Shown here: positions 1 to 45,321 of the stretch, in pieces
Layout: every line of letters starts with the position of its first letter
How positions within the stretch are numbered: position 1 is the first letter of the stretch
DNA from: a bacterium
Lineage (GTDB): Bacteria; UBA8248; JACPRG01; G963555815
Direction of reading: 5' to 3'
Assembly (NCBI GenBank): GCA_965218795.1
Contig: OZ244653.1
Coordinates: forward strand, 4,192,001 to 4,256,000
Length of the DNA: 64,000 nucleotides
Notes under the pieces: generated by a model
What the model saw: only the letters and a program-made list of their open reading frames with translations
The model's database searches: none
Told to the model about the DNA's origin: nothing
Made by a program: the position numbers and the translations under genes

Positions 1-738
1 GCCAAGTACGCCCGGCCGTCCGCGAAGGAAGAGGAAAAGGAGAAGAAGAAAAAGAAGGGCGTGGTCCGTGAATACACCGAGGCCATCCTGCTCGCCCTTC
101 TCCTGGCGCTCTTTCTGCGTGCGTTTGTCGTCCAGGCCTTCAAGATACCTTCGGGCTCCATGAAGGAAACCCTCCAAATCGGCGATCACCTCCTGGTCAA
201 CAAACTCCTCTACCGCACCTGGACGAAGAACGACCTCGCCGAGATGTTCGAGGTGGTCCCCATTCTGGGCGACTTCATCAAATTCCTGACCGACTTGCTG
301 CCGTTCGATTACAACTTCAGGTTCAAGGAAGTGAACCGCGGCGACATCGTCGTCTTCAAGTTCCCCCGGGATGAGACCCGCGATTTCATCAAGCGGGTGA
401 TCGGGATGCCGGGCGACGTGGTGGAGGTCCGTGGCAGAGAGGTCCTCATCAACGGCAGGACCATCGATGAGCCTTACGCCAAGTACGACGACGTGGGCGA
501 GCAGGGGAACTTCGCCACCCGCGAGCGGTTCGGCCCGGTCCGTGTGCCGGATGGGCACGTCTTCATGTTCGGAGACAACCGGGACAATTCCCTCGACAGC
601 CGGGCCTGGGGTTTTCTCGACACGGACAAGATCCGGGGGGAGGCGTTCATCCTCTATTGGTCCTGCATCAAGCCCGGCGTGTTGTGTCTGCTCCCGTCCA
701 ATATCCGCTGGAACCGCTTCGGCAAGCTGCTGTTCTGA
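1..738 (+). CDS. lepB: Signal peptidase I (probably 5'-partial; frame is open to the window edge)
   Basis: TM helix followed by IPSGSM (catalytic Ser), FIKRVIG (Lys) and GDNRDNSLDSR motifs; frame 1 is open from base 1. Confidence 0.95.
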   Translation, partial: AKYARPSAKEEEKEKKKKKGVVREYTEAILLALLLALFLRAFVVQAFKIPSGSMKETLQIGDHLLVNKLLYRTWTKNDLAEMFEVVPILGDFIKFLTDLLPFDYNFRFKEVNRGDIVVFKFPRDETRDFIKRVIGMPGDVVEVRGREVLINGRTIDEPYAKYDDVGEQGNFATRERFGPVRVPDGHVFMFGDNRDNSLDSRAWGFLDTDKIRGEAFILYWSCIKPGVLCLLPSNIRWNRFGKLLF

Positions 739-779
739 ATCAGCGGTGAAGGTAGAGACTCGCGCCGAACGATTGACGG

Positions 780-1640
780 TCACCCATTGGGTCCATCCTT
801 CAAGTTTCTTCTGAAATGATCCGAAAGCCTCGCAAATTCCTCGAGGCTCAGCGTCTCCGCGCGGCGGGCCGGGTCGATCCCCGCCGCGGCCATCGTGTCC
901 TGGATTCGGCCTTCCATTTCCTTCCCGAAATAAGACCGCAGATTATTGGACAAGGTCTTCCGCCGCTGGGCGAATGCAGCGCGGACGAGCCGCTCGAAGA
1001 AACCCGGGTCGTGGACCGGCGCCCTCGGCTCCTTCTGCGGAACCAGCCGGAGAACGGTTGAGGATACCTTGGGCGGCGGCGAGAACGCCCCGGGTTCCAC
1101 GTCGAATCCCCATTCCACCTCGCACCACAGCTGGACGGCCAGCGTGAGGGTGCCGTAATCCTTCGTTCCGGGCTGCGCGCTGATCCGGTCGGCCACCTCC
1201 TTCTGAATCATGACGACAAGGTCTCGGATCGCCTCCCGGCACTGAACCAGGTTCAGGAGGATGGCGGTGGCCGCGTAGTAGGGAAGATTCCCGATCACTC
1301 GAATGCGGGCGCCGCCGGGTTTCATTTCTGAGAGATTGGAGAAGTCGACGGCGAGGGCGTCCCCCTCGGCGATGGAGACGTGCGGCCGGTCGGCGAATTC
1401 CCGTTTCAGGTTCTCCGCAAGGCGGTCATCCAGCTCCAGCGCCGTCACGAGGCCCCCCGGTTCCACCCTCCGGGCCAGAGTTCGGGTCAGCTCCCCCCGT
1501 CCCGCGCCGATCTCCACTACGTGCTCCCCGGGCCGCGGATTGCAGAATTCGATGATCCGGTCCAGGACGAACGGGTCGCGGAGAAAATGCTGGCCCAGGC
1601 GGGCGCGCTTGCGCCTTTTTCGTACTGATTTGTGCGTCAT
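780..1640 (-). CDS. rsmA: 16S rRNA m6,2A1518/1519 dimethyltransferase
   Basis: LGQHFL, VEIGAGRG, GNLPY, QKEVADR, FSPPPKV, AFAQRRKTL and RRAETLS motifs. Confidence 0.97.
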   Translation of the reverse strand: MTHKSVRKRRKRARLGQHFLRDPFVLDRIIEFCNPRPGEHVVEIGAGRGELTRTLARRVEPGGLVTALELDDRLAENLKREFADRPHVSIAEGDALAVDFSNLSEMKPGGARIRVIGNLPYYAATAILLNLVQCREAIRDLVVMIQKEVADRISAQPGTKDYGTLTLAVQLWCEVEWGFDVEPGAFSPPPKVSSTVLRLVPQKEPRAPVHDPGFFERLVRAAFAQRRKTLSNNLRSYFGKEMEGRIQDTMAAAGIDPARRAETLSLEEFARLSDHFRRNLKDGPNG

Positions 1641-1661
1641 CTCGATGTCCCGGAGGTCTTG

Positions 1662-2666
1662 TTACCGCTGGTTCCGTCTCGTCAAATGGGCCGCCAGCCG
1701 AATGGCCGCAATCACGCCGGAGGGGTCGGCCCGGCCCCGCCCCGCGATATCGAAAGCCGTCCCGTGGTCGGGAGAGGTCCGGATGAACGGCAGCCCCAGC
1801 GTGACGTTGACCGCGGTCCCGCGCCCGAGCAGCTTGGCCGCGATCAAACCCTGGTCGTGGTACATGGCGACGATGCCGTCCCAGTCTCCGGCCTTTCGCG
1901 CAAACAGGGCATCGGCGGGGAAGGGGCCCTCGGCGTGAATTCCTTCCCGGACCGCGTCCCGAACGGCCGGGGCGACGGCGCGGGTCTCCTCCGTCCCAAG
2001 CCTTCCGCCTTCACCGGCATGAGGGTTCAGACCCGTCACGGCGATCCGGGGCGCTCGCTTCCCTTCGCCGTCACGGAGCCAGCGGTCGAGCACGCGAAGT
2101 GTCCGGAGGACGGCTTTCCGTCCGATGGCCCCCGGCACCTCGTCCAAGGGCAGATGCGTCGTGACCAGCGCCACGCGCAGCCGTCCGGCAAAGAAGGTCA
2201 TGGCCACGTCCCGCGTCCGGGTCAGCGTGGCGAGGGCTTCGGTATGTCCGGCGTGTGCGATCCCGGCCGCATGCCAGGCCTTTTTCGAGATCGGGGCGGT
2301 AACCAAGGCGTCGGCCCCGCCGGATTCCACGAGCCGGACGGCGGCTTCAACGCAGTCGTAAGAGAAGCGTCCCGTCGTGGCTGAGATTTTCCCCCAGCGA
2401 ACGCCCTTCAGAGCCGCACCCTCGACATCCTTGATTTCCAGACGCTTCAGAACGGTTTCGGCGCCGCGTCTGTGCTGTTTCCCCAGAGTGTCTGCCGTGC
2501 GCTCGAAAACCTTGCGGCTCCCGACAAGGACGAGCCGGCACAACCTCGCCAAACCGGGGTCGGCTGCGGCCCGAAGGATGATTTCCGGTCCGATGCCGGA
2601 CGGGTCGCCCGGGGTCAGAGTCACCCTGGGAAGGGAAGATGCGCGGGGACGGGGGGTCATGATCAT
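1662..2666 (-). CDS. pdxA: 4-hydroxythreonine-4-phosphate dehydrogenase
   Basis: GDPSGIGPE, TAPISK, GHTE, LNPHAGE, MYHDQG and RTSPDHGTAFDIAG motifs; classic pdxA-rsmA order. Confidence 0.97.
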   Translation of the reverse strand: MIMTPRPRASSLPRVTLTPGDPSGIGPEIILRAAADPGLARLCRLVLVGSRKVFERTADTLGKQHRRGAETVLKRLEIKDVEGAALKGVRWGKISATTGRFSYDCVEAAVRLVESGGADALVTAPISKKAWHAAGIAHAGHTEALATLTRTRDVAMTFFAGRLRVALVTTHLPLDEVPGAIGRKAVLRTLRVLDRWLRDGEGKRAPRIAVTGLNPHAGEGGRLGTEETRAVAPAVRDAVREGIHAEGPFPADALFARKAGDWDGIVAMYHDQGLIAAKLLGRGTAVNVTLGLPFIRTSPDHGTAFDIAGRGRADPSGVIAAIRLAAHLTRRNQR

Positions 2667-2845
2667 CCAATCTCTGTGTTGCGCTGAGCAGATCTTAGCA
2701 CGGACGCCCCTCGCTGCGGATGGCTTGCCGGTCGGGGACTGATATTGTGCTATCCTCTAATAAGCAGATTGACTGTTTTCTGACAGAAGGCGATAGAAAT
2801 GTTGCGCGTCTCCCACCTTTTTGAAAGTCAGACCGGAGGAATGAG

Positions 2846-3460
2846 ATGAGCCTTCTTCGGGAAGAGCCGGTTCCCGCCCGCGAGGGACGGGCGTGGGTCG
2901 TGAAGCGCGGTCAACGAATACGGTTCGTCGACGTCGATGGCGGTCAGATTGGCGACCTTGTGGTATTCAATGCGGACAACATCCGGGAACGCTTCAACCA
3001 ATCCCGCACGAGGTCCAATCAGGGAAAATTTCTGATCTCCACGGGGGATCACCTGTACTCCAAATTCAACAATATCATGCTGACCATCGTCGAGGACACT
3101 TACGGCACTCACGATTTGCAGTACGGGATGTGCAGCCGTTTCGTCTATCAGCGGGCAAAGCACAGCCTAGCCGAGGGTTTCCCGATCGGGGGGCCGCTCG
3201 GCCGGCCCGAGGTCGGCTGCTGGGAGATCCTCACCGAAACCATGAAGCCCTGGGACGTCCCGGCGGAGGACGTGCCCGATCCCCTGAACCTGTTCCAGAC
3301 GTTGGACTTTGATTTCGAAAACGGCCGTTTTGCTCTGGCGGAAGGCCGCAGCAAGCCGGGGGACTATGTCGACATGGTGGCCGAGATGGATGTGATCGCG
3401 GCGCTCAGCGCGTGCCCGGTAACGGGCCATCCGCTCCGGGTGGAGATTTACGAGATCTAG
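2846..3460 (+). CDS. DUF1989 / urea carboxylase-associated family protein
   Basis: GGQIGDL, HDLQYGMC, GCWE, PDPLNLF, SKPGDYV and SACP motifs; GGAGG RBS upstream. Confidence 0.9.
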   Translation: MSLLREEPVPAREGRAWVVKRGQRIRFVDVDGGQIGDLVVFNADNIRERFNQSRTRSNQGKFLISTGDHLYSKFNNIMLTIVEDTYGTHDLQYGMCSRFVYQRAKHSLAEGFPIGGPLGRPEVGCWEILTETMKPWDVPAEDVPDPLNLFQTLDFDFENGRFALAEGRSKPGDYVDMVAEMDVIAALSACPVTGHPLRVEIYEI

Positions 3461-3462
3461 GA

Positions 3463-3707
3463 AGGCTGCGGAAAAACGGTTTCGAGGGCCGTGATGACGC
3501 TCCCCGTGTCATCCTGAGGGAGAGGTCAATGACCCAAGGTCACCGACCCGCGCGAGGAATCTTCTTCAAATCAGGGAGCTTTTTATCAACCCGTTCAAAA
3601 ACAACAAGTTTTGCGCTTGAGCGAATTCCCCGCTGCGCTCGGAATGACAATTCGCGAGGTTCTCATTCCGGTCAAAACGCCGGGCCGGCGGAGTTTTTCC
3701 GCAGCCT
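3463..3707. mobile_element. MITE-like element with 15-bp perfect TIRs enclosing REP-like hairpin arms
   Basis: AGGCTGCGGAAAAAC (3463-3477) and GTTTTTCCGCAGCCT (3693-3707); CTAG just left, CTCG just right; internal GTCATCCTGAG ... CTCGGAATGAC arms. Confidence 0.7.
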
Positions 3708-3753
3708 GCTCGGGGCAGGCGGGGCTTGGACGTGAAACGTCGCCGTCGAATGG

Positions 3754-5058
3754 ATGACGACGCGGGATGAGAATTTCGTGAAGCTTACGGTCAATCGTTT
3801 TCCGGTGGATCGAATCGGGGAATCGCAGAATACGGAGTTGGACGGACGCACCCTCGGGATTGATCCGGCCGCGTTGCAAACCCTTCTCCTCCAGGACGAG
3901 CGCATCCGGGGGGTGTCGGTCGATCTCGTCCACCCTGGGGATTCCTGCCGCGTCATCAACATCCTGGACATCTTCGAGCCCCGGATCAAAGTTGACGGCG
4001 CGGGTGCAACGTTTCCCGGGACCTTTCCGGGCATCCTGGGCGATGCGAGCCTCGTCGGGAGCGGCGAGACGAATGTTCTGGAAGGCGCATCCGTCGTCGT
4101 TTGCGGTCCGTTGGACGGGGCCGAGGACGCCTTGCTCGATATGAGCGGGCCGTGCGCGGAACTCAGTCATTTCTCCGCGATCGAGAACGTGGCCGTCACC
4201 CTCCAGCCGGCCGAGGGGCTTCCCCGGGCCGAATTCTCCAAGGCGGCCGTCCAGGCGGGCGTCCGGGCCGCCCACCACCTCGCGGGGGCGACCGAAGGGA
4301 AGTCCGGGGAATCATCGGAAGTGTTTGACCTGCCGCCGGCCCTTCAGGGGGGCGGTGATCCAGGGGCGCTCCCCCGCGTCGGATACGTCTACTTCCTGTA
4401 TTCCCACGGCGATCTGCGGGACATGCTCGTCTACGGCAGAGACACCCGCGATCTGTACCCGACGCTGATCCATCCCAACGAGGTCATGGACGGCGCCGTC
4501 GTGTGGGAGGGCTTCAGCCGCCCGACCATGAACATGACGTATGACCAGCTCAACAACGGTGTCATCCGCTCCCTGTACGACGCGCACGGCAAGACCTTGA
4601 CCTATACCGCCACCATCATCGCCAACCACCACAAACTCTTTGCGGAAAAGGCTCTCCACGCAGAGCAGATCGCGTCCCTGGCGGGGGACGTCCTGGGCGT
4701 CGACGGTGTCGTCATTACGAAGGACGGCGGGGGCCAGGCGGACACCGACCTGATGCTGACCTGCGAGCGGTGCGAGGAGCGCGGCATCCAGACCGTCATC
4801 CTGGCGATGGAGTTCGCGGGCGTCGGCGGATCCTCGGAGGGTTCGCTGGCGGATACGAGTCCGAGGGCCGATGCTATCGTGGCCGTCGGGAACTGCGCGG
4901 AGATGATCGCGCTCCCCGCGATGGAGCGGGTCGTGGGGGGGAAGCGGCTCAAGGATTACGACCGAGACCCCCGGGAGGGGATCGAGGTCCCCTACAACAA
5001 AATGCCCGGCCCCATCAGCTTTTTCGGGGACAATTGCCTGCGCGCCCAGGCCTACTAG
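3754..5058 (+). CDS. Glycine/sarcosine/betaine reductase component B non-selenium subunit (GrdE/GrdG/GrdI-like)
   Basis: DIFEPRIK, DMSGPCAELSHFS, PTLIHPNEVMDGA, DGVVITKDGGG and DAIVAVGN motifs; directly upstream of the selenoprotein B gene. Confidence 0.88.
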   Translation: MTTRDENFVKLTVNRFPVDRIGESQNTELDGRTLGIDPAALQTLLLQDERIRGVSVDLVHPGDSCRVINILDIFEPRIKVDGAGATFPGTFPGILGDASLVGSGETNVLEGASVVVCGPLDGAEDALLDMSGPCAELSHFSAIENVAVTLQPAEGLPRAEFSKAAVQAGVRAAHHLAGATEGKSGESSEVFDLPPALQGGGDPGALPRVGYVYFLYSHGDLRDMLVYGRDTRDLYPTLIHPNEVMDGAVVWEGFSRPTMNMTYDQLNNGVIRSLYDAHGKTLTYTATIIANHHKLFAEKALHAEQIASLAGDVLGVDGVVITKDGGGQADTDLMLTCERCEERGIQTVILAMEFAGVGGSSEGSLADTSPRADAIVAVGNCAEMIALPAMERVVGGKRLKDYDRDPREGIEVPYNKMPGPISFFGDNCLRAQAY

Positions 5059-5074
5059 AACGGGAGAATTCATC

Positions 5075-6376
5075 ATGTCCCGCGCACGGGTCGTCCATTA
5101 CGTGAATCAATTCTTCGCCGGCGTCGGCGGCGAGAGCGAGGCCTCCACTGAGCCGTTCTTTGTGGAAGGCCCCGCCGGTCCCGGCAAGCCGCTGGACGCG
5201 ACCCTGGGGGATCAGGCGGACATCGTTCTCACCGCGGCCTGCGGAGACGATTGTTTCGCCGAGCAAAATGAGAAGGCCGTCGCCGTCCTCGTGGACCGCA
5301 TTCGCGACGCCCGCCCCGATCTGTTTTTTTCCGGACCCGCCTTCAACTCCGGGCGGTACGGATACGCCTGCGGCGTGCTGGGCCAACGCGTCGGGCAGGA
5401 ATTGAGCATCCCGGTCGTGTCGGGAATGGCGCCGGAAAATCCCGGTCTGGAGTACCGGAGAGGGGCCTATATCGTCCGGACGGCGGACAACGTCCGGGGG
5501 ATGAAGGACGCCATCGAAGCGATGGCCCGGCTGGGCCTCATGCTCCTGCGCGGGCAAGAACCGGGGGCTTCGGAGGACGAGGGATACTTTCCGCGGGGCT
5601 ACCGGAAGAACGTCCGGGTGGAGCGAAAGGGAACGGAGCGGGCCCTCTCGATGCTGCTGGCCAAGATCCGGGGAGAGGCCTTCGAGACCGAGTTGGTCAT
5701 GCCGAGGTTCGACCGCGTGGCGCCGGCGCCCCCGGTCGGCGACCCGGCGAAGGCGACGATCGCCCTGGTGACAACCGGCGGTCTGGTGCCCAAGGGCAAC
5801 CCCGACCGGCTGCAATCCACCATGGCGACCCGCTTCGGCCGGTACGCGGTCGATGGGGTCGAGGACCTGTCCCCCGCCGATTTCGAGGGGAATCACGGCG
5901 GGTATTCGACGGCCTACGTCAATGAGGATCCCGATCGGCTGGTACCCCTGGACGTCCTGCGGGATCTGGAGCGGGAAGGGCGGGTCGGAAAAGTCCACGA
6001 AGTCTTCTTCACGACGGCGGGTTGCAGCACGTATTACGAAGCCGGGGCCCGGATCGGAGCGGAGATCGCCCGGGAGCTCGAGGAATCCGACGTGGATGCC
6101 GCGCTGATCACCGCGACGTGAGGCACGTGCACCCGCTGCGGGTCAGCGGTCGCAAAAGAGATTGAGAGGGCGGGACTGCCCGCGGCCCTCATCGCCACGC
6201 TCAGCTCCATCGCGCGGAACACAGGGGCCAACCGAATCGTCACCGGGGCGGGCATCCCTCACGTGGTCGGCCATCCGGATCTGGACCCGGCGGAGGAGAA
6301 GGCGTTCCGGCGGAAGGTCGTGGAGCGGGCGATCCAGGCGATCTCTACGGAGGTCGGCGACCAACAGGTTTTCTGA
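5075..6376 (+). CDS. Glycine/sarcosine/betaine reductase selenoprotein B (GrdB/GrdF/GrdH-like), 433 aa with Sec349
   Basis: VVHYVNQFFAGVGGE, GPAFNSGRYG and ALVTTGGLVPKGNPD motifs; TGA at 6119-6121 reads through to ITAT-U-GTCTRCG...GANRIV...IPHVVG...DQQVF, stop at 6374-6376. Confidence 0.93.
6129..6153 (+). promoter_or_regulatory. Putative bacterial SECIS hairpin for GrdB Sec349
   Basis: Stem CCGCTG (6133-6138) / CAGCGG (6144-6149) with G-rich loop CGGGT starting 18 nt after the UGA. Confidence 0.65.
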
Positions 6377-6400
6377 TCGATCCATACGAAGGGAAAATGG

Positions 6401-7795
6401 GTGAAGGCTGATCTCGTGCTCAAGGGCGGGACGCTCGTCATCCCGGGACAGGGACTCGTCCGGGCCGGTGTGGCGGTTCGGGCGGGGACGATCACCGCAG
6501 TGGCCAAGGAAGCCGCGCTGCCGTCCGCGTCCCGGGTGATTGACGCAAAGGGCCGATTTGTGCTTCCCGGCATCATTGACCCCCATGTCCACTTCGGCCT
6601 GATCAGCGACCTGGGCGAGGATGTCCGGACCGAGACCCGGTCCGCTCTGGCGGGAGGGGTCACGACGGTCGGGGCCTTCATTCGCGAGCCGGAATCCCAC
6701 CTGGAGAGCTTCGACCGGCGGACCCGGATCTTCGAAAGCAACAGCTCGGCCGACATCTTTCCTCATTTCGAGATTGTCTCGGAGGCGCAGGCTCTCGAAA
6801 TTTCCGGGTGCGCGAAGCGGTTCGGCGTCACTTCGTACAAGATGTTCATGTCCGGGATCCCGATCAAAGGCTCGTCCGTCCCGGTGGATGACGGCGTGCT
6901 CCTTGAGTCCTTCCGGCAAATCGCCCGTCTCGGGGCGTCGGGCATCGCCCTCGTCCACGCTGAAAATCCGGATATCGTCATCCACGCCCGGGCGCGCATG
7001 GGGCAACTGAAACCCCGCGGCAATCTGAGGGACTGGGCCGACTGCCATCCGAATCTGGTGGAGGAGGAGGCGGTGCTCCGATCCGTCTATCTGGCGGAGC
7101 AGGCCGGCTGCCGGATCTATATCGTTCACGTCTCGACGGCGGAGGCTCTGGACCGGCTTCGCGCGCTCCGGAAGGACAACCCGGCGTTGTTCGTCGAAAC
7201 GTGCTCGCCCTACCTCACCCTGACGAAACATTCCAAAATGGGCCTTCTGGCCAAGCTCATCCCGCCCCTCCGCGGCCGGGAGGATCTGGAAACTTTGTGG
7301 CGGGGGATGGAAGAGGACGTCGTTGATTCGTTGGGAACGGACAACATTTTTCGCACACGGGCGTACAAGCAGCCGGAGGCCGGGCTCATCGGCGCGAAAG
7401 GCGCCGCGACGTTCCTCGGGGTTCACCTGCCCGTGATGCTCGATGAAGGAGTCCACCGCCGGAGGTTCCCCCTCGAACGGCTGGTCGACAAGATGACGCG
7501 CCAGCCCGCCCGCATCTTCGGTTTGTATCCGAAAAAAGGAACCATCTCTCCCGGCTCGGACGCCGATCTGGTCGTCGTGGACCTGGAGAAGGTGAGAACC
7601 GTCCGCCCCTCCGAGCTTCATACCCGGGCGGACTTCTCTTTATATGAGGGAAAGCGAATCCGAGGCTGGCCGGTGATGACGATCAAGGGCGGAGCCGTGG
7701 CCGTTGAGAACAACGAGATCCTGATCGATCCGGGCTGCGGTAAGGTGTTGAGACGGTCCCTCAAGACGGTCGGAGGACGGAGGATGTCTCGTTGA
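6401..7795 (+). CDS. Cyclic amidohydrolase (dihydropyrimidinase / allantoinase / dihydroorotase family)
   Basis: PGIIDPHVH, AGGVTT, SYKMFM, VHAEN, VHVS, ETC and KKGTISPGSDADLV motifs. Confidence 0.9.
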   Translation: MKADLVLKGGTLVIPGQGLVRAGVAVRAGTITAVAKEAALPSASRVIDAKGRFVLPGIIDPHVHFGLISDLGEDVRTETRSALAGGVTTVGAFIREPESHLESFDRRTRIFESNSSADIFPHFEIVSEAQALEISGCAKRFGVTSYKMFMSGIPIKGSSVPVDDGVLLESFRQIARLGASGIALVHAENPDIVIHARARMGQLKPRGNLRDWADCHPNLVEEEAVLRSVYLAEQAGCRIYIVHVSTAEALDRLRALRKDNPALFVETCSPYLTLTKHSKMGLLAKLIPPLRGREDLETLWRGMEEDVVDSLGTDNIFRTRAYKQPEAGLIGAKGAATFLGVHLPVMLDEGVHRRRFPLERLVDKMTRQPARIFGLYPKKGTISPGSDADLVVVDLEKVRTVRPSELHTRADFSLYEGKRIRGWPVMTIKGGAVAVENNEILIDPGCGKVLRRSLKTVGGRRMSR

Positions 7796-10155
7796 ATCCG
7801 GAAGCTTTGACGGAAGAGGCGGCGTATCGTATCGTCGGACGCCGTTTCCCGAAACACGACGGCACGCTGAAAGCCACCGGATCGGCCGTCTACGGAGCGG
7901 ACGTTCTCCCGCCCGGCGCCCTCATCGGGAAGATCCTCCGCAGCCCCTACGCCCACGCAAAACTCCTGCGCATCGACGTCCGGGGGGCGGAATCCCTCCG
8001 AGGCGTGAAGGCCGTGCTCACGGCGAAGGACACCCCCCTCATCCGGTACGGTTTCCGCGAAGGCGCGGATCCGGGGAATACGCGGTTCGCCGATAAGCTC
8101 CCTCTCGCATCGGAGAAGGTCCGCTTCGCCGGTGAGGAGGTTGCCGCCGTGGCCGCCGTCGACGAGGACACCGCCCAAGAGGCCCTGGACCGGATCATTG
8201 TCGATTACGAAGAATTGCCGATCGTGACGTCCCCCCTGGAGGCGATGCGGAATGGCGCTCCGGAACTCCATACGGGCGTCCGGGATAACGTCGCCCTTGA
8301 GATGACGATGGAATTCGGCGATGTCGATCCGGCCCTGGCTGAGGCGGACGTGGTGGCGGACGACGAATTCCACACCTCGCAGGTCGAACCCGTCTGTCTC
8401 GAGACGCAGGGATGCGTGGCGAAGTTCGATTCCGACGGAAGGCTGACGGTCTGGACCTCGATTCAAATGCCGTTCCTGCTTCGGGCCCACTTGGCGAATT
8501 GTCTGGACCTCCCCGAAAACCGGGTGCGCATCATCCGGTCGACCATCGGCGGGGGGTTCGGAAAGCGAATGGAAATGCACGACTTCCATCCCATCTGCGC
8601 GCTCCTGGCGATGAAGACCGGGCGTCCCGTGAGGGTCCTGCTGAGCCGGGAGGAGGATTTCATCGGCTCGCGCACGCGCCATCCCATGGGCATCCGGATG
8701 CGGACGGGCGCGACGAAAGACGGCCGAATTCTCGGACAGGAGATGCGGATCGTCACGGACAACGGCGCCTACATGAGCGCCGCGCCCGGCGTCACGTTCA
8801 CGGCCTCCAACTACAGCATCAGTCTTTACAGCAAGGTGAGGCACTACCGGTTCGACGGGAAGATCGTCTACACGAACAAGAACTACGGCGGCGCCTACCG
8901 CGGCTACGGAAACCCCCAGGGGACGTTCGCGCGGGAGGTTCAGGTGGACATTCTCGCCGAAAAGATCGGCCTCGACCCGGTCGATTTCCGCCTACGGAAC
9001 GTGACGGAAGAGGGCGACGTCTCCGCCTGCGGGTATCGGGTGACGAGTTGCGGGATGCGGGAGTGCATCGAGCGGACCGCGGCGTCCCTGGAATGGACCC
9101 GGAAGAAGAAGGAGGGCCGGCCCGGGCGCGGGGTCGGGATGGCCTGCGCGGTTCATTGCGGCGGCGGGGTCAGGGTATACCGGAACACGGACGCCTGCAG
9201 CGCCCTCGTCAAGATGGAGGACGACGGGACGGTGTCCGTCCTGACCGGGGCGACGGAGATCGGGAGCGGGCAGAACTCCGTGATGGCGGCGGTCGTGGCG
9301 GAAGAGCTGGGCGTCTCGCCCGAGGAAGTCCGGATCATCAGCGAGGATTCGGATGCGGTCCCCTGGGACCTGGGCACCCACGGCAGCCGGATGACCTTCA
9401 TTGCGGGCAACGCAGCCCGGCGCGCCGCAATCGATGTCAAGGAACAGCTGCTCACGGCTGCGGGAGAGATCCTGGAGGCCGACCCCCAGGACCTGGTTGT
9501 TCACGACCGCGAGATTTTCCTTCGCGGCCTGTCCGACCGCCGGGTTTCGCTGACCGACGTCGTCCGGGGCTCCCATTACAATCGGGACAGCCGGATATTC
9601 CTCGGTCGAGGCGTTTACGATCCGCCCCATGAAACGGTCAACCGTGAGACCCATTCGGGTAACATATCGGCGGCCTACAGCTTTTGCGCCCAGGCGGCGG
9701 AGGTGGAGGTCGACCGGGACACGGGCTTCGTCCACGTGCTGCGTCTCGTTGCGGCGCACGACGTCGGATACCCGATCTGCCCCGCAGGGGTGGAGGGTCA
9801 AATCGAGGGCGGCGTCATGCAGGGGATCGGCTACGGCCTGATGGAAGAAATGTTGTTCGACGCCGAATCCGGTCAGCTGCAAAACGGCACCCTGGCGGAT
9901 TACAAACTGCCGACCACCCTCGACGTTCCACCCATCGAGAGTATCATCGTCATCACCCGGGACGGCGAGGGGCCGTTCGGCGCCAAGGGGTTTGCCGAGA
10001 CCACGATTACGCCCACTGCGGCCGCCATCGCCAATGCCGTCTATGACGCCGTGGGGGTGAGGATCAGGGAACTCCCGCTGACCTCCGAGAAAATCTATCA
10101 TGCCCTGAACGGCGGGCCGGAATCGAGGCGGGGAGGAGGGGACGCGCGTGGCTGA
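7792..10155 (+). CDS. Xanthine dehydrogenase family molybdopterin-binding large subunit
   Basis: ILRSPYAHA, GGGFG, AYRGYGNPQ, GSGQ, GTHGSR, GQIEGG and GPFGAKGFAE motifs. Confidence 0.93.
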   Translation: MNPEALTEEAAYRIVGRRFPKHDGTLKATGSAVYGADVLPPGALIGKILRSPYAHAKLLRIDVRGAESLRGVKAVLTAKDTPLIRYGFREGADPGNTRFADKLPLASEKVRFAGEEVAAVAAVDEDTAQEALDRIIVDYEELPIVTSPLEAMRNGAPELHTGVRDNVALEMTMEFGDVDPALAEADVVADDEFHTSQVEPVCLETQGCVAKFDSDGRLTVWTSIQMPFLLRAHLANCLDLPENRVRIIRSTIGGGFGKRMEMHDFHPICALLAMKTGRPVRVLLSREEDFIGSRTRHPMGIRMRTGATKDGRILGQEMRIVTDNGAYMSAAPGVTFTASNYSISLYSKVRHYRFDGKIVYTNKNYGGAYRGYGNPQGTFAREVQVDILAEKIGLDPVDFRLRNVTEEGDVSACGYRVTSCGMRECIERTAASLEWTRKKKEGRPGRGVGMACAVHCGGGVRVYRNTDACSALVKMEDDGTVSVLTGATEIGSGQNSVMAAVVAEELGVSPEEVRIISEDSDAVPWDLGTHGSRMTFIAGNAARRAAIDVKEQLLTAAGEILEADPQDLVVHDREIFLRGLSDRRVSLTDVVRGSHYNRDSRIFLGRGVYDPPHETVNRETHSGNISAAYSFCAQAAEVEVDRDTGFVHVLRLVAAHDVGYPICPAGVEGQIEGGVMQGIGYGLMEEMLFDAESGQLQNGTLADYKLPTTLDVPPIESIIVITRDGEGPFGAKGFAETTITPTAAAIANAVYDAVGVRIRELPLTSEKIYHALNGGPESRRGGGDARG

Positions 10156-10513
10156 GATCCTCGTCGCCCCGGCCTCGGAGTTCGAGGAAGGCGGGTGCCG
10201 GATCATCGCGCAGGACGGTCTGGAGGTCGGCGTCTTCCTTGTGGGCGGCGAGTTCCACGCCTTCGAGAACGAATGCCCGCATCAAGGAGGACCCGTCTGC
10301 CAGGGCAGGCTGTTCAGGCAGGTGGAGGAAATCCTGGGCGAGGACAGGAGCAGTCTCGGCGAAAGATTCTCCGAAGAAAAGGTGCGCATCGTCTGTCCCT
10401 GGCACGGATATGAATTTGACGTCAAGACCGGCGGGCATCCGGCCGACGGACGGATCCGACTGCGGAAGTTCGAGGTGGAGGTACGCGACGGAGCGGTTTT
10501 CGTGATTCTCTAG
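10148..10513 (+). CDS. Rieske [2Fe-2S] ferredoxin
   Basis: CPHQGGPVC and CPWHGYEFD ligand boxes; overlaps the upstream stop; GGAGG RBS. Confidence 0.92.
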   Translation: MAEILVAPASEFEEGGCRIIAQDGLEVGVFLVGGEFHAFENECPHQGGPVCQGRLFRQVEEILGEDRSSLGERFSEEKVRIVCPWHGYEFDVKTGGHPADGRIRLRKFEVEVRDGAVFVIL

Positions 10514-10562
10514 AATCAACCCGCGGGGTCACGGTCAAGCAGGGTACAGCGGGAACCGAAGG

Positions 10563-11789
10563 ATGGAGTCAAAGTCGATGGAAACGAAGGTCATCGGGTC
10601 CACGGACCTCGAGCCGTTCCATCACCGCTCGGATACGCGGGAGATTCTCGCCCACGCGAAGCGGCAGGCGGAGGATCGAAACTACGCGGACTACGTCATC
10701 ATGGACGTGGATTCCCACCACTCCGACAATGTGTCCTGGAAGGCGGTGGTCCGCTACATCGAAGACCCGGTCGTTCGTGCGGCCGCCGAGGAGTATCACG
10801 CCAAGGTGGCCTCTCCCCCCTACGGTGTCGTGAACAACATCATGTACTACCAGGACGTGGGCGGGCGCATCCAGCATCAGGCGGGGTGGCGGGAGCCCGT
10901 GGACGACACCGGCCATCACGCGGACGTGACGATTATCCGACGCGCCATCGAGTGCATGGGCCTGGACTATATGGTCGTCTTCCCCACCAAGCTGCTGGAT
11001 CTGGGCAAACATCCGGTCGCAAGGACCGAGGCCCTGTTGGCGTACGCCTATAACCGCTGGCTGGTCGAGAACATCCTGTCGGTCGACCCGCGGATCAAAT
11101 CGCTCCTCTACCTGCCGATCAGTGTGCCGGAAGAGTCCGTCCGGATCGTCGAAGAATTTTCAGAGCACCCGGGCGTGATCGGGTTCATGGTGACGAGCAC
11201 CCGGAACAAGCCGGTTTATGACAATGTCTTCATGCGGCTGTATGCAACGCTGGAGGAGCGGGGCATGCCCCTGGCCTTCCACGGCGGCTATTCCTGGGGC
11301 GAGGAGCCCGTCATGGCCCAAATGAACAAGTTCATGGGCTACCACTTGGTGGGCTTCGTGCTGTGGAACCTGATCCACCTGATCAACTGGGTGACCAACG
11401 GCCTCCCGGAGCGGTTTCCCCGGCTGAAGGTCATCTGGATTGAGAGCGGTCTGGCCTGGTTGCCGTTCGTGATTCAGCGCCTGGACAACGAGTACATGCG
11501 CCGCGTCTCCGAGGCTCCGCTGCTCAAGCGGCGCCCCAGCGAGTACATCCGCGAGATGTATTTTTCCTCACAACCCATGGAACGGGAGAACCTGGAGGCG
11601 CTTGAGCTGACCTTCAAGATGATCAACGCGGAAACTCAGCTCATGTACGCCTCGGATTGGCCGCACTGGGATTTCGACCTGCCCAGCGCGATCTTCGATC
11701 TCCCTTTCCTGGGAGAGAGGGCGCGGCGGAACATCCTCGGGGAGAACGCGCTGAAACTGTTCAACCTGGATAGGCCGGACGGAAAATAG
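10563..11789 (+). CDS. Amidohydrolase_2 family TIM-barrel protein
   Basis: DVDSH, AYNRW, AFHG, PERFPRLKVIWIESGLAW, PSEY and YASDWPHWD motifs. Confidence 0.9.
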   Translation: MESKSMETKVIGSTDLEPFHHRSDTREILAHAKRQAEDRNYADYVIMDVDSHHSDNVSWKAVVRYIEDPVVRAAAEEYHAKVASPPYGVVNNIMYYQDVGGRIQHQAGWREPVDDTGHHADVTIIRRAIECMGLDYMVVFPTKLLDLGKHPVARTEALLAYAYNRWLVENILSVDPRIKSLLYLPISVPEESVRIVEEFSEHPGVIGFMVTSTRNKPVYDNVFMRLYATLEERGMPLAFHGGYSWGEEPVMAQMNKFMGYHLVGFVLWNLIHLINWVTNGLPERFPRLKVIWIESGLAWLPFVIQRLDNEYMRRVSEAPLLKRRPSEYIREMYFSSQPMERENLEALELTFKMINAETQLMYASDWPHWDFDLPSAIFDLPFLGERARRNILGENALKLFNLDRPDGK

Positions 11790-11928
11790 ACGCGCGTGGG
11801 ATATGGGTGGGCGGGTTCGCCGGTAACGGAGGAGTCTGCGCCCGCCGTCGTGGGCCATCCGATTCCCTGAGTCGGACGAAGCCCGGGCTTCGATCCATCC
11901 ACCGACGGGGGAAGGAGGATAAGACCGC

Positions 11929-12717
11929 ATGATGGACCCAGTATCCCAGCGGCCGGGAATCCGTTGCATCGACCTCAGCGTTCCGCTCCAGAATTACTCC
12001 TACGACCGGGACGAAGCCAAGATTTTTTATTGGGACCACCGGGAAGGGGGACGGCGGATCTCCAGGAAAATCGGCTTTGACCCCGCTCTTCTGCCCGACG
12101 GGATGGCTCTGGCGGCGGAAGAGGTGGAGCTGAACACCCATTCCGGCACCCACATGGATTCTCCGTGGCATTTCGGTCCCACGTGCGAGGGCCAACCCTC
12201 GCGCAGGGCGGATCAGATCCCCCTGGCCTGGTGCTTCTCGGACGGCGTACTCCTCGACATGACCCATAAGCGGGCGGGACACCTCATCACGGCGGAGGAC
12301 ATGGACGAGGCGGTGGGAAAGATTGGATATGAGATCAAGCCGTTCGATATCGTCCTCATCCGGACCGACGCCACGAAGCTCTATGAAAGCCCGGATTTTC
12401 TGGTGAGCCAGCCGGGCATGGGGCGCGAGAGCACGCTCTGGCTTCTGGACCGGGGGGTGAAGATCGCGGGCATCGACGCCTGGAGCTTCGACCGGCCGCT
12501 GACGGAGATGATGAAGGAGCTCAAGGCGGGCGACACAGCGGCCTACTGCCCGGCCCATTTTGTCGGAAAAGAGCGCGAGTACTGCCACGTGGAGAAACTG
12601 GCCAACCTGGACATGATCCCCAGAGCATTCGGGTTCAAAGTGGCGGTATTTCCCATCAAAATCGAACGCTCCAGCGCCGGCTGGGTGCGGGCGGTGGCGA
12701 TCTTCGACGAGGACTGA
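11929..12717 (+). CDS. Cyclase family protein (kynurenine formamidase-like metal hydrolase)
   Basis: THSGTHMDSPWH signature; GIDAWSFD, HVEKLANL and RAVA motifs. Confidence 0.92.
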   Translation: MMDPVSQRPGIRCIDLSVPLQNYSYDRDEAKIFYWDHREGGRRISRKIGFDPALLPDGMALAAEEVELNTHSGTHMDSPWHFGPTCEGQPSRRADQIPLAWCFSDGVLLDMTHKRAGHLITAEDMDEAVGKIGYEIKPFDIVLIRTDATKLYESPDFLVSQPGMGRESTLWLLDRGVKIAGIDAWSFDRPLTEMMKELKAGDTAAYCPAHFVGKEREYCHVEKLANLDMIPRAFGFKVAVFPIKIERSSAGWVRAVAIFDED

Positions 12718-12731
12718 TTCCGGGAGGCGGG

Positions 12732-13361
12732 ATGAACCTCAAGGAGCGGCGCGTGGAGGGGATGGACCGAGTCATGGCGATGACTGAAATTCGGACCTGC
12801 GCCGCCCAGAGCAAGTCCCAGGGCGGCGTGATCTGCGTCGTGAAAGGCGGCCGGCTCGTGGAGGTCCTGCCCGACCCCGATCACCCCAACGGTCCTCACG
12901 AGGTCGATCTGTATCCGAAGAGCCGGGTCCTGCCGGAGCTTCTCTATCACTCCGAATGGCTGAAGCGTCCCGTGCGCTGGTCCCGGCTGGGAGAGCATCT
13001 CTGGGATGAGGCTTTGGAGTCCATCGCGCAGAAGCTCCTGACCATCCAAGAGGAATCCGGCCCGGAGGCGGTGGATTTCCACCGAGCCTTGCCGGGGGGC
13101 GCCGCTTCAAGCGATTACAACCCCTGGTTTCACCGGCTGGCCTTCACCTTCGGAAGTCCGAACGCCTCCTCCGCGATGTACATCTGCAACTGGCACAAGG
13201 ACTTTGCGTCCCGTTACACCTACGGGAGCGGGGTCGCCGAGCCCGACTTCGACCGGCCGCGGGCGCTCATCCTGGGGGCCGGGGGCGGGCCGGACGCGCT
13301 CCTTGCGCTTTACCATGATTCCGATGATCTGTATCCTTGCAATTCTGCGAAAATTGATTAA
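12732..13361 (+). pseudogene. Decayed N-terminal fragment of a MopB (DMSO reductase-superfamily) molybdopterin oxidoreductase
   Basis: PDPDHP, PELLYH, WDEAL, GPEAV, FGSPN and ICNWHKDF motifs; [4Fe-4S] Cys mostly lost; about 200 aa versus more than 650 aa typical. Confidence 0.75.
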
Positions 13362-13592
13362 GAAGCATTGGGGCATTCCTCATCGGCCCAGGAAGCCTTC
13401 ATCTCCCTTCGGGCGTTCTTCAGAAGGGGGAATCGTTTTTCTTTTTTGCAGAAATAACAGGATGATTTGGAGTGGATTGCGGGAGGCGAAGGTCTTCCCG
13501 CAATTTTGCCGTCCGGCGGCAGTGTTGGCTGATTTCGAGTGCGGTTTGACGGGTCTATCGCCCGTCCCGACGAAATCCAACAGGAGTTGATG

Positions 13593-15786
<2,194 letters not shown>

Positions 15787-15898
15787 GAGTCGCTCCGCGG
15801 AACCAGGCGGAATCACCCCCTGCTTTCCAATTCTGGATCCGATACAGAATTCAAGCCGGCGCCGGCTCAATCATGACAGTTCAGTCTGACGCGTTGGG

Positions 15899-16753
15899 TT
15901 GCGAAACGTGCGGGAAATCCAGGCCGTCCAGATCACCGAAGCCGTAAAAGACATGTGCATCCAGGCGAATCGCGTTTTGGGTGAAGACATGCTGGCGGCA
16001 TTGGCGGACTCCGTGAAAAAGGAGGAATCCCCGGCCGGAATCATCGTTCTCGAACAGCTTTCAGAGAATGCAGCGCTTGCGTCCGAGCGGGAGATGCCCC
16101 TTTGTCAGGACACCGGATTTTCGGTGTTTTTCGTGGATGTGGGGCAGGATGCCCACATCACGGGCGGAAACCTGGAAGACGCGATCAATGAAGGCGTGCG
16201 GCGGGGCTATCGGGACGGGTTGCTCAGGGCTTCCATCGTCGAGCATCCTTTTTCGGACCGCCTGAACACGGGAGACAACACGCCGGCGGTGATCCATACC
16301 CGAATGGTTCCGGGAGATTCCCTTCGAATCGTTTTTGACGCCAAAGGAGGCGGAAGCGAAAACCAAAGCCAGCTCCGGATGCTCGAACCGGCAGATGGCC
16401 GGAAAGGCGTGCGGGATTTTATCATCCAGGCGGCCGTCAACGCGGGTCCGAGCGCCTGCCCGCCTTTGATTGTGGGCGTGGGTATCGGCGGGACCTTCGA
16501 AAAATGCGCCTTTCTTGCCAAGCAGGCTCTCTTGCGGGAGCTGGGTGATCCGAATCCCGATCCGGAAGTGGCCGAGCTGGAGACGGAATGCCTGAAGGCC
16601 ATCAATGATTCCGGCGTCGGACCGATGGGGTTCGGCGGCCGCGTGACGGCCCTGGCCGTCCACGTCGAGACATATCCCTGCCACATCGCGAGCCTGCCCG
16701 TGGCAGTGAACGTTGAGTGTCATTCCCACCGCCACCGGAACGTCACGCTCTGA
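15899..16753 (+). CDS. Class I Fe-S fumarate hydratase alpha subunit
   Basis: CQDTG, DNTPAV, KGGGSEN, ACPP, GIGG and CHIASLPVAVN..CH motifs. Confidence 0.93.
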   Translation: MRNVREIQAVQITEAVKDMCIQANRVLGEDMLAALADSVKKEESPAGIIVLEQLSENAALASEREMPLCQDTGFSVFFVDVGQDAHITGGNLEDAINEGVRRGYRDGLLRASIVEHPFSDRLNTGDNTPAVIHTRMVPGDSLRIVFDAKGGGSENQSQLRMLEPADGRKGVRDFIIQAAVNAGPSACPPLIVGVGIGGTFEKCAFLAKQALLRELGDPNPDPEVAELETECLKAINDSGVGPMGFGGRVTALAVHVETYPCHIASLPVAVNVECHSHRHRNVTL

Positions 16754-19901: not shown

Positions 19902-19904
19902 TCG

Positions 19905-20639: not shown

Positions 20640-20869
20640 TCGGCTTCATCGGGCTGGCATCGTCGAATTCGCGCTTCGCATGATGTGTTCTTGAATTGCG
20701 TCATGACGTGGCCCTGTCTGTGCGGTTGGTTGCGTCGGGCGCTGACGGTGGGCAGGGCTGATCCGCGCGTGGATTCCTCATGGCTCGGCGGGTCATTCGA
20801 GGGGTGGGTTTTTGACCGTTCTGTCGTGCCGCCGGAACCGGGAAATCATGTCTTTTTCAAGGTCGAACC

Positions 20870-22033: not shown

Positions 22034-22311
22034 CCAAGAGCCATGAATTGTCAGGAAGGGCATGTTGGGGGCAACGGGCCTCCGCGATTTCTCGGCGTTC
22101 GGTGGCGCCGTAGCCGCGCGCAATCAGGGCATTGTGTATCGATAACCCATGTGCGCGTCGAAAAGTGAGCGGGCCGCGCCTGTTCCCCTGACCCCCATTA
22201 GAACTTTCCCGTCCCCTCGCGAAATGAAGATTTTACTGGTGCGCGCGCGCCTGACAGAAAGCCCTCCCCCACAGACATCAAAAGGTTCTATAGAGGACAA
22301 GAGAGGTTTCC

Positions 22312-45254: not shown

Positions 45255-45321
45255 GGATGTGACTAGTTAGATAGTCTTTTTACCCTTCAAGTCCGTCCCC
45301 GCTTCGGGTTTTTTGTCGCGC

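Follow-up and report, generated by a model that had tools for sequence, protein, structure and literature searches.

Reductases of the glycine reductase (Grd) type are selenoenzymes that catalyze an energy-conserving Stickland step in strict anaerobes, and their proven substrates are glycine, sarcosine, betaine and fluoroacetate. The canonical glycine reductase operon of the Peptostreptococcales has the order grdX-trxB-trxA-grdE-grdA-grdB-grdC-grdD. Here, we describe a gene cluster with a Grd component B pair (a GrdE-like and a GrdB-like subunit) at positions 2846-13361 of a 64,000-nucleotide stretch of bacterial DNA, which as a whole is referred to as the window (G000:C1:4192001-4256000); the host genome (G000) is a single contig of 5.17 Mb with about 62% G+C. 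The core of this cluster, which runs from grdE to an oxygenase gene, is in our view fairly probably one operon and a lineage-specific catabolic cluster, in which an extra, substrate-specific protein B would end an N-heterocycle or N-alkyl route. Its parts are of known kinds, namely a Grd component B, an amidohydrolase-related oxygenase (ARO), a molybdenum (Mo) hydroxylase and a hydantoinase, and it is the wiring that is new, with a detached B pair next to an ARO, an orphan Mo subunit and a hydrolase. A first-pass annotation of this DNA had proposed that the combination is not a described pathway, and our full-text literature search also found none, although the supplements of PMC9751293 and PMC10811679 may contain members of these clades.

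The closest described systems are betaine GrdH/GrdI and fluoroacetate FarB/FarE (Peptoclostridium acidaminophilum, Cloacibacillus porcorum), which resemble the window pair in combining a selenocysteine (Sec)-containing GrdB homologue with an unprocessed GrdE homologue and in lying away from grdA and grdC, presumably feeding shared components A and C. Multiple B complexes encoded apart from a shared A/C system are described in the accessible text of PMC10838667. The window proteins differ from GrdH and FarE in their far lower scores (430.3 bits against a cut-off of 775 and 148.3 against 675, respectively) and from FarB in that the window GrdB keeps a CxxC after Sec, which FarB does not according to the same text. 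Additionally, the window lineage has no detected GrdD, and the neighbouring genes encode Mo, ARO and hydantoinase proteins rather than transporters or thioredoxin.

The canonical glycine reductase is built from the same A, B (E and B) and C-beta families, with Sec in both GrdA and GrdB. In contrast, the window pair lacks the Asn-Cys site, the glycine motif and a sufficient TIGR01917 score, and grdA is not located between grdE and grdB; no GrdD was found in the window genome, which encodes a COX1-type (haem-copper) oxidase. The known AROs AibH1H2/AibG, SfbO/SfbR and PtmU3 share with the window protein the PF04909 fold, both signature motifs with Trp at gamma-4, and an adjacent Rieske protein, and the predicted interface at the loop after the D-x-P-H-x-D motif is also alike. 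They differ in that the window pair sits in an operon with Grd, xanthine dehydrogenase (XDH)-type and hydantoinase genes, a context that is not mentioned in the accessible parts of PMC10811679 and PMC13154177.

In clostridial purine fermentation, xanthine is converted through 4-ureido-5-imidazolecarboxylate, aminoimidazole and formiminoglycine to glycine and then enters glycine reductase, and the ring-opening genes are reported as unidentified in the portion of PMC3519856 that was accessible. The window lineage likewise has a Mo hydroxylase, a cyclic amidohydrolase and a Grd selenoprotein, along with a heteroaromatic decarboxylase (UbiD in the related loci L010, L011 and L275); its paralogous cluster L275 also encodes a binding protein of the purine-nucleoside type (Bmp/PnrA). 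However, the window cluster has an additional O2-dependent oxygenase and an unprocessed component B, contains no formiminotransferase and belongs to a respiring host. The resemblance is one of enzyme types only and may serve as a lead, not as a result.

Organization of the cluster

The nine co-directional genes of the first-pass annotation were all backed when the gene calls were checked by Pfam and NCBIfam profile searches of the window proteins. The genes and the associated features are as follows:

2846-3460, + strand: DUF1989 protein, 204 aa (PF09347, 160 bits)
3462-3705, strand not assigned: dispersed repeat resembling a miniature inverted-repeat transposable element (blastn copies, terminal inverted repeats)
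3754-5058, + strand: GrdE-like subunit, 434 aa (PF09338, 360.5 bits)
5075-6376, + strand: GrdB-like selenoprotein B, 433 aa (PF07355, 435.5 bits; TIGR01918, 504.2 bits)
6122-6159, + strand: probable selenocysteine insertion sequence (SECIS) hairpin (Rfam SECIS_4, sub-threshold)
6401-7795, + strand: cyclic amidohydrolase of the hydantoinase/dihydropyrimidinase/allantoinase group, 464 aa (TIGR02033, 256.9 bits)
7792-10155, + strand: Mo large subunit of the XDH/carbon monoxide dehydrogenase (CODH) family, 787 aa (PF01315, PF02738, PF20256)
10148-10513, + strand: small Rieske [2Fe-2S] ferredoxin, 121 aa (PF00355)
10563-11789, + strand: ARO, first annotated as "amidohydrolase_2", 408 aa (PF04909, 81.8 bits)
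11929-12717, + strand: cyclase-family metal hydrolase, 262 aa (PF04199, 123 bits)
12732-13361, + strand: truncated MopB oxidoreductase of the molybdenum-bis(pyranopterin guanine dinucleotide) type, 209 aa (PF00384, 21.6 bits with a cut-off of 24)

The core genes are closely packed: grdE and grdB are separated by 16 nt and grdB and the amidohydrolase gene by 24 nt, the amidohydrolase and XDH genes overlap by 4 nt and the XDH and Rieske genes by 8 nt, and 49 nt lie between the Rieske and ARO genes. Beyond the core, the gaps are 139 nt (ARO to cyclase) and 14 nt (cyclase to MopB). A purine-rich, Shine-Dalgarno-like stretch precedes each start from grdE through the ARO gene, and a scan of the + strand of the core revealed no terminator-like site. 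The promoter scan returned two promoter-like sites against 1.4 expected, and no riboswitch or leader RNA reached its gathering score in the second Grd locus of the same genome (L008) or in the related loci L009, L010, L011, L174, L274 and L275.

The first-pass annotation had treated all nine genes as one operon. The tight spacing from grdE to the ARO gene was consistent with this view, but the attachment of the DUF1989 gene was not. The 293-nt gap between this gene and grdE is filled by a roughly 240-bp repeat bounded by inverted ends (GGCTGCGGAAAAAC / GTTTTTCCGCAGCC), of which a blastn search of 3440-3760 against the genome revealed six more partial copies with 72-83% identity (for example, near 5074050, 3660474 and 3180865), and a terminator-like hairpin followed by a T-run lies on the + strand inside the repeat at 3678-3690. 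With this repeat and hairpin in between, and with its variable occurrence in relatives (it is absent from this place in L009, the nearest relative), the DUF1989 gene is only loosely attached to the operon. An open reading frame (ORF) of 107 codons at 3412-3735 was considered as a tenth gene and rejected; it sits on the dispersed repeat and has no Pfam or NCBIfam match.

The GrdE-like and GrdB-like subunits form a non-canonical component B

The window GrdB-like protein scored 504.2 bits with TIGR01918, far above the cut-off of 65.45, which placed it in the Grd/Prd selenoprotein B subfamily. At the level of equivalogs, it remained below the cut-offs for glycine (TIGR01917, 486.6 versus 602.2), sarcosine (NF040794, 497.6 versus 800) and betaine (GrdH, 430.3 versus 775) reductases. 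The best NCBIfam match of the GrdE-like protein was sarcosine GrdG (NF040793) with 303.1 bits, well under its cut-off of 780. Two sequence motifs, AHGGxD[QTAP]...RV[IL]PxD...TxGNxTxV for GrdB and IHGGYDR...TTGTGT for GrdF, are given in the accessible text of PMC9751293. Both were absent from the window GrdB, which reads NHGGYST, RLVPLD and TTAGCST. When the motifs were applied to 93 GrdB sequences, 36 were of the glycine type, one was of the sarcosine type and 56 were neither; the controls L050 and L051 matched the glycine motif, and the window protein and all nine family members (window type and second-locus type) fell among the 56. In a maximum-likelihood tree of the same 93 sequences (a quick search with no bootstrap), the nine family sequences formed one clade with a Shimodaira-Hasegawa-like approximate likelihood ratio of 99, located outside the Bacillota (glycine) clade. 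The window type is also rare, as a search of 5.8 billion proteins returned only six clusters that were at least 64% identical.

The GrdE-like subunit also departed from the canonical enzyme. In particular, it reads EGFSRPT where the GrdE proteins of Bacillota, Synergistota and other bacteria have GNCVSAC. The Asn-Cys self-processing site was present in 47 of the 76 aligned GrdE sequences and missing in 29, which included the window protein, its paralogue and those of L009-L011, and it was found in none of 26 further GrdE sequences of the same class. A subunit without this site should carry no pyruvoyl group. FarE and GrdI, which likewise lack the cysteines of the processing site, are not pyruvoyl proproteins, and in the part of PMC10838667 that could be consulted this is explained by their substrates needing no Schiff base. 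Judged by its sequence, the window GrdE-like subunit is thus of the GrdI kind, unprocessed and pyruvoyl-free like betaine GrdI and fluoroacetate FarE. By every test applied, the window component B classifies as non-canonical, being neither a glycine, a sarcosine nor a betaine reductase, and the atypical character that the first-pass annotation had attributed to it was borne out by the three equivalog scores, the motifs and the tree.

Selenocysteine usage

We found an in-frame TGA codon in grdB at 6119-6121 within T-U-G-T-C-T-R-C-G (motif U-x-x-C-x-x-C), and the 84 codons that follow it are 82-85% identical in three orthologues. The genome carries the genes for tRNA-Sec, selA, selB and selD, so that the expected Sec machinery is in place; selD (G000:C1:5147448-5148413) has an in-frame TGA of its own, and selenophosphate synthetase is therefore a selenoprotein in this organism. 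Directly downstream of the grdB TGA, the Rfam model SECIS_4 matched at 6122-6159 with 28.2 bits (E 0.0088), short of its gathering score of 38, and it was the only Rfam match at E <= 0.1 in window positions 1-16000. A hairpin with the stem ACCCG/CGGGU followed the UGA in all five sequences that were folded, with z-scores of -0.15 to 0.73 that were no better than those of shuffled sequences. The use of Sec by GrdB is supported by these sequence features, and the hairpin directly after the UGA is probably its SECIS element.

Components A and C are encoded at a second locus

None of GrdA, GrdC and GrdD was found within the 64-kb window, and the thioredoxin motif WC[GA]PC did not occur in any of its frames, in agreement with the first-pass annotation, which had noted the lack of GrdA, GrdC/D and TrxA/B. 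A search of the rest of the genome located grdA, grdC and a second grdE/grdB(Sec) pair in a cluster at 759-763.6 kb, 3.4 Mb from the window operon. The GrdA gene (760423-760860) contains one TGA in the context CFV*T, and its product matched PF04723 with 178.5 bits; GrdC, the beta subunit of component C (NF040746), scored 529.7 and 525.6 bits against a cut-off of 450. The second GrdE/GrdB pair is 59% identical to the window pair. With grdA and grdC at 0.76 Mb, the window pair would therefore be an additional, substrate-specific B component that is able to share components A and C.

The second locus is atypical in its own right. It spans G000:C1:757-768 kb (L008 7375-18030, minus strand) and has the order MopB (700 aa), octopine-dehydrogenase-like protein (507 aa), a 254-aa protein, GrdE2, GrdB2(Sec), GrdA(Sec) and GrdC, followed by a 142-aa ORF, an EamA transporter and a major facilitator superfamily transporter. 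Its MopB-GrdE2-GrdB2-GrdC-EamA part is kept in a genome of the same genus, G001 (L173).

GrdD, the alpha subunit of component C (NF040747), gave a different result. In G000, the only match was PlsX-like (27.3 bits), and none of 61 class-level relatives had a match at E <= 1e-10, while GrdA was found in 35 and GrdB in 36 of the same 61 genomes. The search recovered GrdD with 504-609 bits in three of five control genomes (L050, L051 and L017), all of which have the GrdE processing site, and it was not found in the two controls with an unprocessed GrdE (L038 and L088, a Binatia and an Actinomycetes genome). From these sequence comparisons, the loss of GrdD seems to go together with the loss of the pyruvoyl site, and we found no description in the literature of a Grd branch that lacks both.

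The ARO and its Rieske ferredoxin

The first-pass annotation had proposed a deformylation step, and the product of the "amidohydrolase_2" gene is predicted not to be a deformylase. Its best matches in the PDB were the ARO structures 8SM7, 8SM9, 8SM6, 6M1W/8FUL and 8SM8, followed by PtmU3. AROs were recognized because they are associated with small Rieske ferredoxins, and a member of the group, SfbO, catalyzes an O2-dependent oxidative N-dealkylation (PMC10811679). The signature of these proteins, as stated in the accessible section of PMC13154177, is an N-terminal D-x-H and a C-terminal D-x-P-H-x-D/E that is preceded by about 200 residues or more. The window protein contains both, D50-S-H52 and D365-W-P-H-W-D370, and apart from the x positions these residues were invariant in 44 aligned homologues. 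We conclude from structure matches and motifs that the "amidohydrolase_2" protein belongs with the AROs and is predicted to be an oxygenase with a dinuclear centre (Mn/Fe or Fe2) rather than a hydrolase or a decarboxylase. With this identity, the step it catalyzes would be an O2-dependent hydroxylation or dealkylation, not a deformylation.

The adjacent small protein has the motif C-P-H...C-P-W-H, which corresponds to the C-x-H...C-x2-H pattern of Rieske ferredoxins. Of 80 loci with an ARO homologue, 46 have a Rieske gene next to it, and each of the nine ARO paralogues of G000 has one within a distance of 6 kb. The model of the complex between the ARO and the Rieske protein scored 0.81, whereas the best of three controls scored 0.00; among solved complexes, 58 of 80 attained this mark, as did 2 of 110 mismatched pairs, counts that hold only roughly, as our own alignments were used. 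Repeated runs agreed in at least 93% of the contacts, and the pLDDT (predicted local distance difference test) of the partner was at least 90. In the modelled interface, the cluster loops of the Rieske protein (41-49, 52-54 and 82-87) touch ARO residues 369-376, next to the metal-binding loop. The model and the gene pairing point to the Rieske protein as the predicted electron donor of the neighbouring ARO, and it is probably not a partner of the XDH subunit. The overlap of the XDH and Rieske genes is not conserved, and an ORF-free gap of about 318 nt is present at this position in L010 and L011.

In many ARO loci of Alphaproteobacteria (L104, L112, L134-L169 and others), the ARO gene is followed by the Rieske gene after about 330-660 nt, enough space for a small ORF. 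In the window, the Rieske gene comes immediately before the ARO gene, without such an ORF.

Hydrolases and Mo enzymes of the cluster

The cyclic amidohydrolase had L-hydantoinase 1GKR as its best PDB match (216 bits). In the alignment, the segments DPHVH, YKMFM (with its K), VHAEN, VHVS and TDN were kept, and we take the corresponding HxH, carbamylated Lys, two His and Asp to be the ligands of a binuclear metal site. Its scores were below the equivalog cut-offs for dihydropyrimidinase (256.9 versus 393.25), allantoinase (245.6 versus 631) and ErtD (191 versus 650).

The XDH-type protein contains the hammerhead domain and two molybdenum cofactor-binding domains of a large subunit. Its best NCBIfam match was the alpha subunit of 4-hydroxybenzoyl-CoA reductase (669.8 versus 994.55), with PDB entry 1RM6 at 467 bits. 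No [2Fe-2S] or FAD subunit lies beside it, as none of the 28 Fer2_2 matches of the genome fell within the window coordinates; in L011, a [2Fe-2S] small subunit is located about 9 kb upstream in its cluster. The XDH/CODH large subunits are strongly expanded in G000, with 73 Pfam matches and 70 full-length tblastn matches (for example, C1:4394822-4395538 and 5040262-5040999), and 26 of the 70 have one of the 28 [2Fe-2S] small subunits within 3 kb while 44 do not.

The DUF1989 protein scored 105.8 bits with UAAP2 and 101.7 bits with UAAP1, far under the cut-offs, and 57.8 bits with the trimethylamine N-oxide (TMAO) demethylase model; its PDB matches were 3DI4 (80 bits) and the TMAO demethylase 9Q59 (34.9 bits). 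This family includes the carboxyguanidine deiminase CgdAB, according to the text seen of PMC11271267, as well as the N-terminal domain of TMAO demethylase, and the window protein stays under both cut-offs. The cyclase-family protein scored 23.8 bits with the arylformamidase model, against a cut-off of 223. The MopB fragment was described as a remnant in the first-pass annotation, and we found the same: it aligns (68% identity) solely to residues 4-180 of the 798-aa L010 orthologue and is therefore a true remnant of the N-terminal quarter. The full-length L010 protein scores with dimethyl sulfoxide (DMSO) and S/N-oxide reductase models.

These neighbours bear on the alternative that the pair is a divergent betaine reductase of the GrdH/GrdI type, acting on glycine betaine or an analogue, with neighbours that partly belong to methylamine chemistry. 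Besides the unprocessed partner subunit, which is as in GrdI, the window ARO would in that case be an N-dealkylase like SfbO (PMC10811679), and the DUF1989 match to the TMAO demethylase N-terminal domain would fit, as would the L010 MopB scores, with MopB acting as an N-oxide reductase; several 50%-identical homologues are also labelled 'betaine reductase' by JGI. However, GrdH gave the lowest of the three reductase scores, and the hydantoinase-like and XDH proteins, which are the tightest neighbours, have no role in betaine or methylamine metabolism. Moreover, MopB is truncated in the window and absent from L009, and the 204-aa DUF1989 protein lacks the GcvT domain of TMAO demethylase. Overall, we regard a betaine reductase as quite unlikely.

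We also compared the cluster with the reductive urate (2,8-dioxopurine) cluster, whose markers in the accessible text of bioRxiv 10.1101/2025.04.24.650524 are XdhAC, YgfK, SsnA, HyuA, YgeW, YgeY and YgeX. Such a cluster is defined by at least four of the seven markers lying together, which was not seen in the window, the marker proteins themselves not having served as queries. Only the XDH-type and hydantoinase-type families of the nine genes resemble these markers, and no carbamoyltransferase, YgfK-type, SsnA-type, M20 or diaminopropionate-lyase family turned up in the Pfam and NCBIfam scans of the cluster.

Conservation and recurrence of the cluster

To define conservation, the 80 best GrdB loci of a species-level genome collection were surveyed. 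The order GrdE-GrdB-amidohydrolase-XDH-Rieske-ARO was kept in three of them, L009, L010 and L011, which come from uncultured bacteria of one family-level lineage. GrdB was 75%, 64% and 65% identical to the window protein in these loci, respectively, and the amidohydrolase, XDH, Rieske and ARO proteins were 68-90% identical. The other 77 loci did not have the combination; 12 of them (mostly Binatia) had a distant Amidohydro_2 match of 23-29% identity, on the opposite strand in 10 cases, and one had an XDH match of 28%. The cluster-bearing relatives are G001 from the same genus and G004 and G006 from the same family. GrdB occurs in four of six family relatives, the fourth being G003, in which a window-like GrdB lies on a 1.8-kb contig with no context.

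The three orthologous loci were similar in the core and differed in the accessory genes. L009 is flanked by ksgA/pdxA and icd/mdh, just as the window cluster is, but DUF1989, the cyclase and MopB were not found in it. L010 and L011 carry the cyclase (75-76% identity) and a full-length MopB and, upstream, a second XDH large subunit with a 2Fe-2S subunit, DUF1989, a UbiD-family decarboxylase and an NMT1/SsuA-type binding protein; DUF1989 is 78% identical and located about 5 kb upstream of grdE. The MopB orthologue of L011 (17977-20377) is split over two frames of 305 and 561 aa, which may reflect a frameshift or an assembly error; that of L010 is intact.

The same families were also found in different arrangements. 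A third Grd cluster in G004 and G006 (L275 and L274) contains an amidohydrolase, a cyclase, UbiD, XDH, GrdB(Sec), GrdE and one or two DUF1989 genes in a different order, and its GrdB shares no more than 40-41% identity with that of the window; the cluster also has a luciferase-like monooxygenase, a metallo-beta-lactamase-fold protein, RidA domains and a Bmp/PnrA-type binding protein. In the second Grd locus of G004 (L174), GrdE2-GrdB2-GrdC is directly followed by a Rieske and ARO pair. At the class level, the usual arrangement is a plain GrdC-GrdA-GrdE-GrdB unit, and a hydantoinase-like gene adjoins GrdB in 2 of 21 loci (L177 and L268). The recurrence of the same families around a distant GrdB paralogue and of Rieske and ARO after the second Grd locus argues for a functional link, and it is the strongest argument for one.

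This recurrence has to be weighed against a mosaic of independent modules (Grd component B, an amidohydrolase-XDH pair and a Rieske-ARO pair) that are together by shared ancestry and serve no common pathway. The genome offers ample material for such a mosaic, with 70 XDH, 20 hydantoinase-like, 12 DUF1989, 9 ARO and 7 cyclase paralogues in 5.17 Mb, and 7 of the 20 hydantoinase-like genes have an XDH gene within 5 kb regardless of Grd. The Rieske and ARO pair is self-contained in the 46 loci mentioned above, 43 of which are without Grd, XDH or hydantoinase genes; the exact order is found only within one family, and the accessory genes come and go. On the other hand, the genes from grdE to ARO overlap or lie at most 49 nt apart, and the families were re-assembled in another order in L274 and L275 and partly in L174. 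For independent placement, a rough estimate from the paralogue counts also puts the expected number of cases with one XDH, one hydantoinase-like and one ARO gene in the 10 kb around a GrdB at only about 9e-5. We therefore consider a mosaic unlikely.

The losses seen in G000 could also mean that the cluster is decaying and no longer functional there. MopB is cut to 209 of about 798 codons, a dispersed repeat has been inserted between DUF1989 and grdE, and the upstream XDH and 2Fe-2S, UbiD and binding-protein genes of L010 and L011 are missing in the window. In contrast, the six core genes have unbroken frames and retain their catalytic motifs, and the core shares 74-90% identity with that of L009, free of frame breaks. 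All parts of the Sec machinery are present, and near-identical contigs occur in an RNA library (see below). Decay is highly improbable on this evidence.

Proposed route and substrate

The missing pyruvoyl site, together with a GrdB outside the glycine and sarcosine signatures, indicates that the substrate is probably neither glycine nor sarcosine. The missing site suggests a carboxymethyl substrate whose leaving group is either charged or good in itself and needs no Schiff base. On sequence grounds, a quaternary, amidinium/guanidinium or ureido nitrogen, or another heteroatom, is the more likely leaving group, and by analogy betaine-like compounds, formiminoglycine, guanidinoacetate, creatine and hydantoate are candidate substrates. 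The window B pair would pass the carboxymethyl group to the selenoprotein GrdA and then to GrdC, both from the 0.76-Mb locus. An N-heterocycle or N-alkyl compound would be the starting material from which the neighbouring enzymes make the reductase substrate: the ARO and its Rieske partner may carry out an O2-dependent C-H hydroxylation or N-dealkylation, the Mo enzyme may hydroxylate the ring, and the hydantoinase-like enzyme may open it. The cyclase, DUF1989 and, in relatives, UbiD and MopB would process side products.

Several observations weigh against this single-route interpretation. The evidence consists of sequences and models, and the exact cluster is confined to one family-level lineage, in four genomes that are kin and do not count as independent cases. 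As the genome abounds in these families, some of the adjacency could be historical, and Rieske and ARO pairs mostly occur without Grd, XDH or hydantoinase genes (43 of 46). The accessory genes vary, as L009 is without DUF1989, cyclase and MopB, and in the window MopB is cut and DUF1989 lies behind the repeat and hairpin. No FeS or FAD partner of the XDH subunit is encoded close to it, and the cluster contains no reductase for the Rieske protein. GrdD carries the thioester cysteine in the textbook enzyme, so that its absence makes the downstream chemistry uncertain. Finally, it is awkward that an O2-dependent oxygenase shares one operon with a selenoprotein reductase known mainly from anaerobes.

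A more specific form of the proposed route would be an oxygen-tolerant hybrid, in which the detached B reductase, free of a pyruvoyl group and independent of GrdD, acts on amidino-, guanidino- or ureido-acetates as a new class of substrates, fed by O2- and Mo-dependent oxidation and hydrolytic opening of a host-derived imidazole, hydantoin or purine-type ring. In such a hybrid, a protonated or resonance-stabilized nitrogen would leave without Schiff-base catalysis, and the reductive C-N cleavage would save energy as an acyl phosphate or thioester. If true, the cluster would represent an aerobic equivalent of the fermentation of purines or creatinine by clostridia, in a respiring sponge-metagenome bacterium. 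We consider this hybrid improbable and present it as speculation. More generally, if the modules cooperate in a single route, the cluster would help to explore which substrates are used by the large environmental branch of unprocessed Grd enzymes, would place an orphan ARO in a physiological setting and would supply a candidate route of N-heterocycle degradation in sponge microbiomes. The cluster yields a short, concrete list of testable substrates.

Habitat, expression and flanking regions

DNA nearly identical to the cluster was found in 20 public runs from 12 studies, several of which are labelled sponge metagenome. One DNA contig of 10,413 nt (X5) covers 3657-14069 with 10 differences; it looks independent but may come from the source sample. 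In an RNA-Seq library (X20), short near-identical contigs mapped to grdE (3925-4199), to grdB across the UGA (6087-6238, no differences) and to the ARO gene (11456-11639). Additional contigs at 3636-3791 and across the XDH/Rieske junction (10094-10251) came from X19, whose status as RNA is a guess. These contigs are no more than a hint of transcription, as DNA carry-over is possible, and contigs cannot show operon structure. The stretch at about 12283-13350 that had no cover in run X15, and depth values in general, did not enter the evidence.

The flanks of the cluster are housekeeping genes, with ksgA and pdxA upstream on the minus strand and icd, mdh and fumarase downstream; the isocitrate dehydrogenase gene starts 177 nt past the MopB fragment, and the best matches of its product (57-65% identity) were spread across many phyla. 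The tricarboxylic acid (TCA) cycle cluster at 17946-25375 contains a succinate dehydrogenase/fumarate reductase flavoprotein and a 2-oxoacid:ferredoxin oxidoreductase (POR/POR_N), and this gene content suggests a ferredoxin-linked, low-oxygen-capable variant of the TCA cycle.

Two further regions of the window were also observed. A region at 44328-48227 has a low G+C content of 48-50%, compared with about 62% for the genome, and carries an IS1595-family transposase gene and a type I restriction-modification remnant, consisting of a specificity subunit and an N6_Mtase split into two ORFs. Additionally, a fused ATP-dependent hydantoinase/oxoprolinase of 1396 aa is encoded at 56127-60317, 43 kb downstream of the cluster, with Hydant_A_N, Hydantoinase_A, Hydant_A_C and Hydantoinase_B in one frame.

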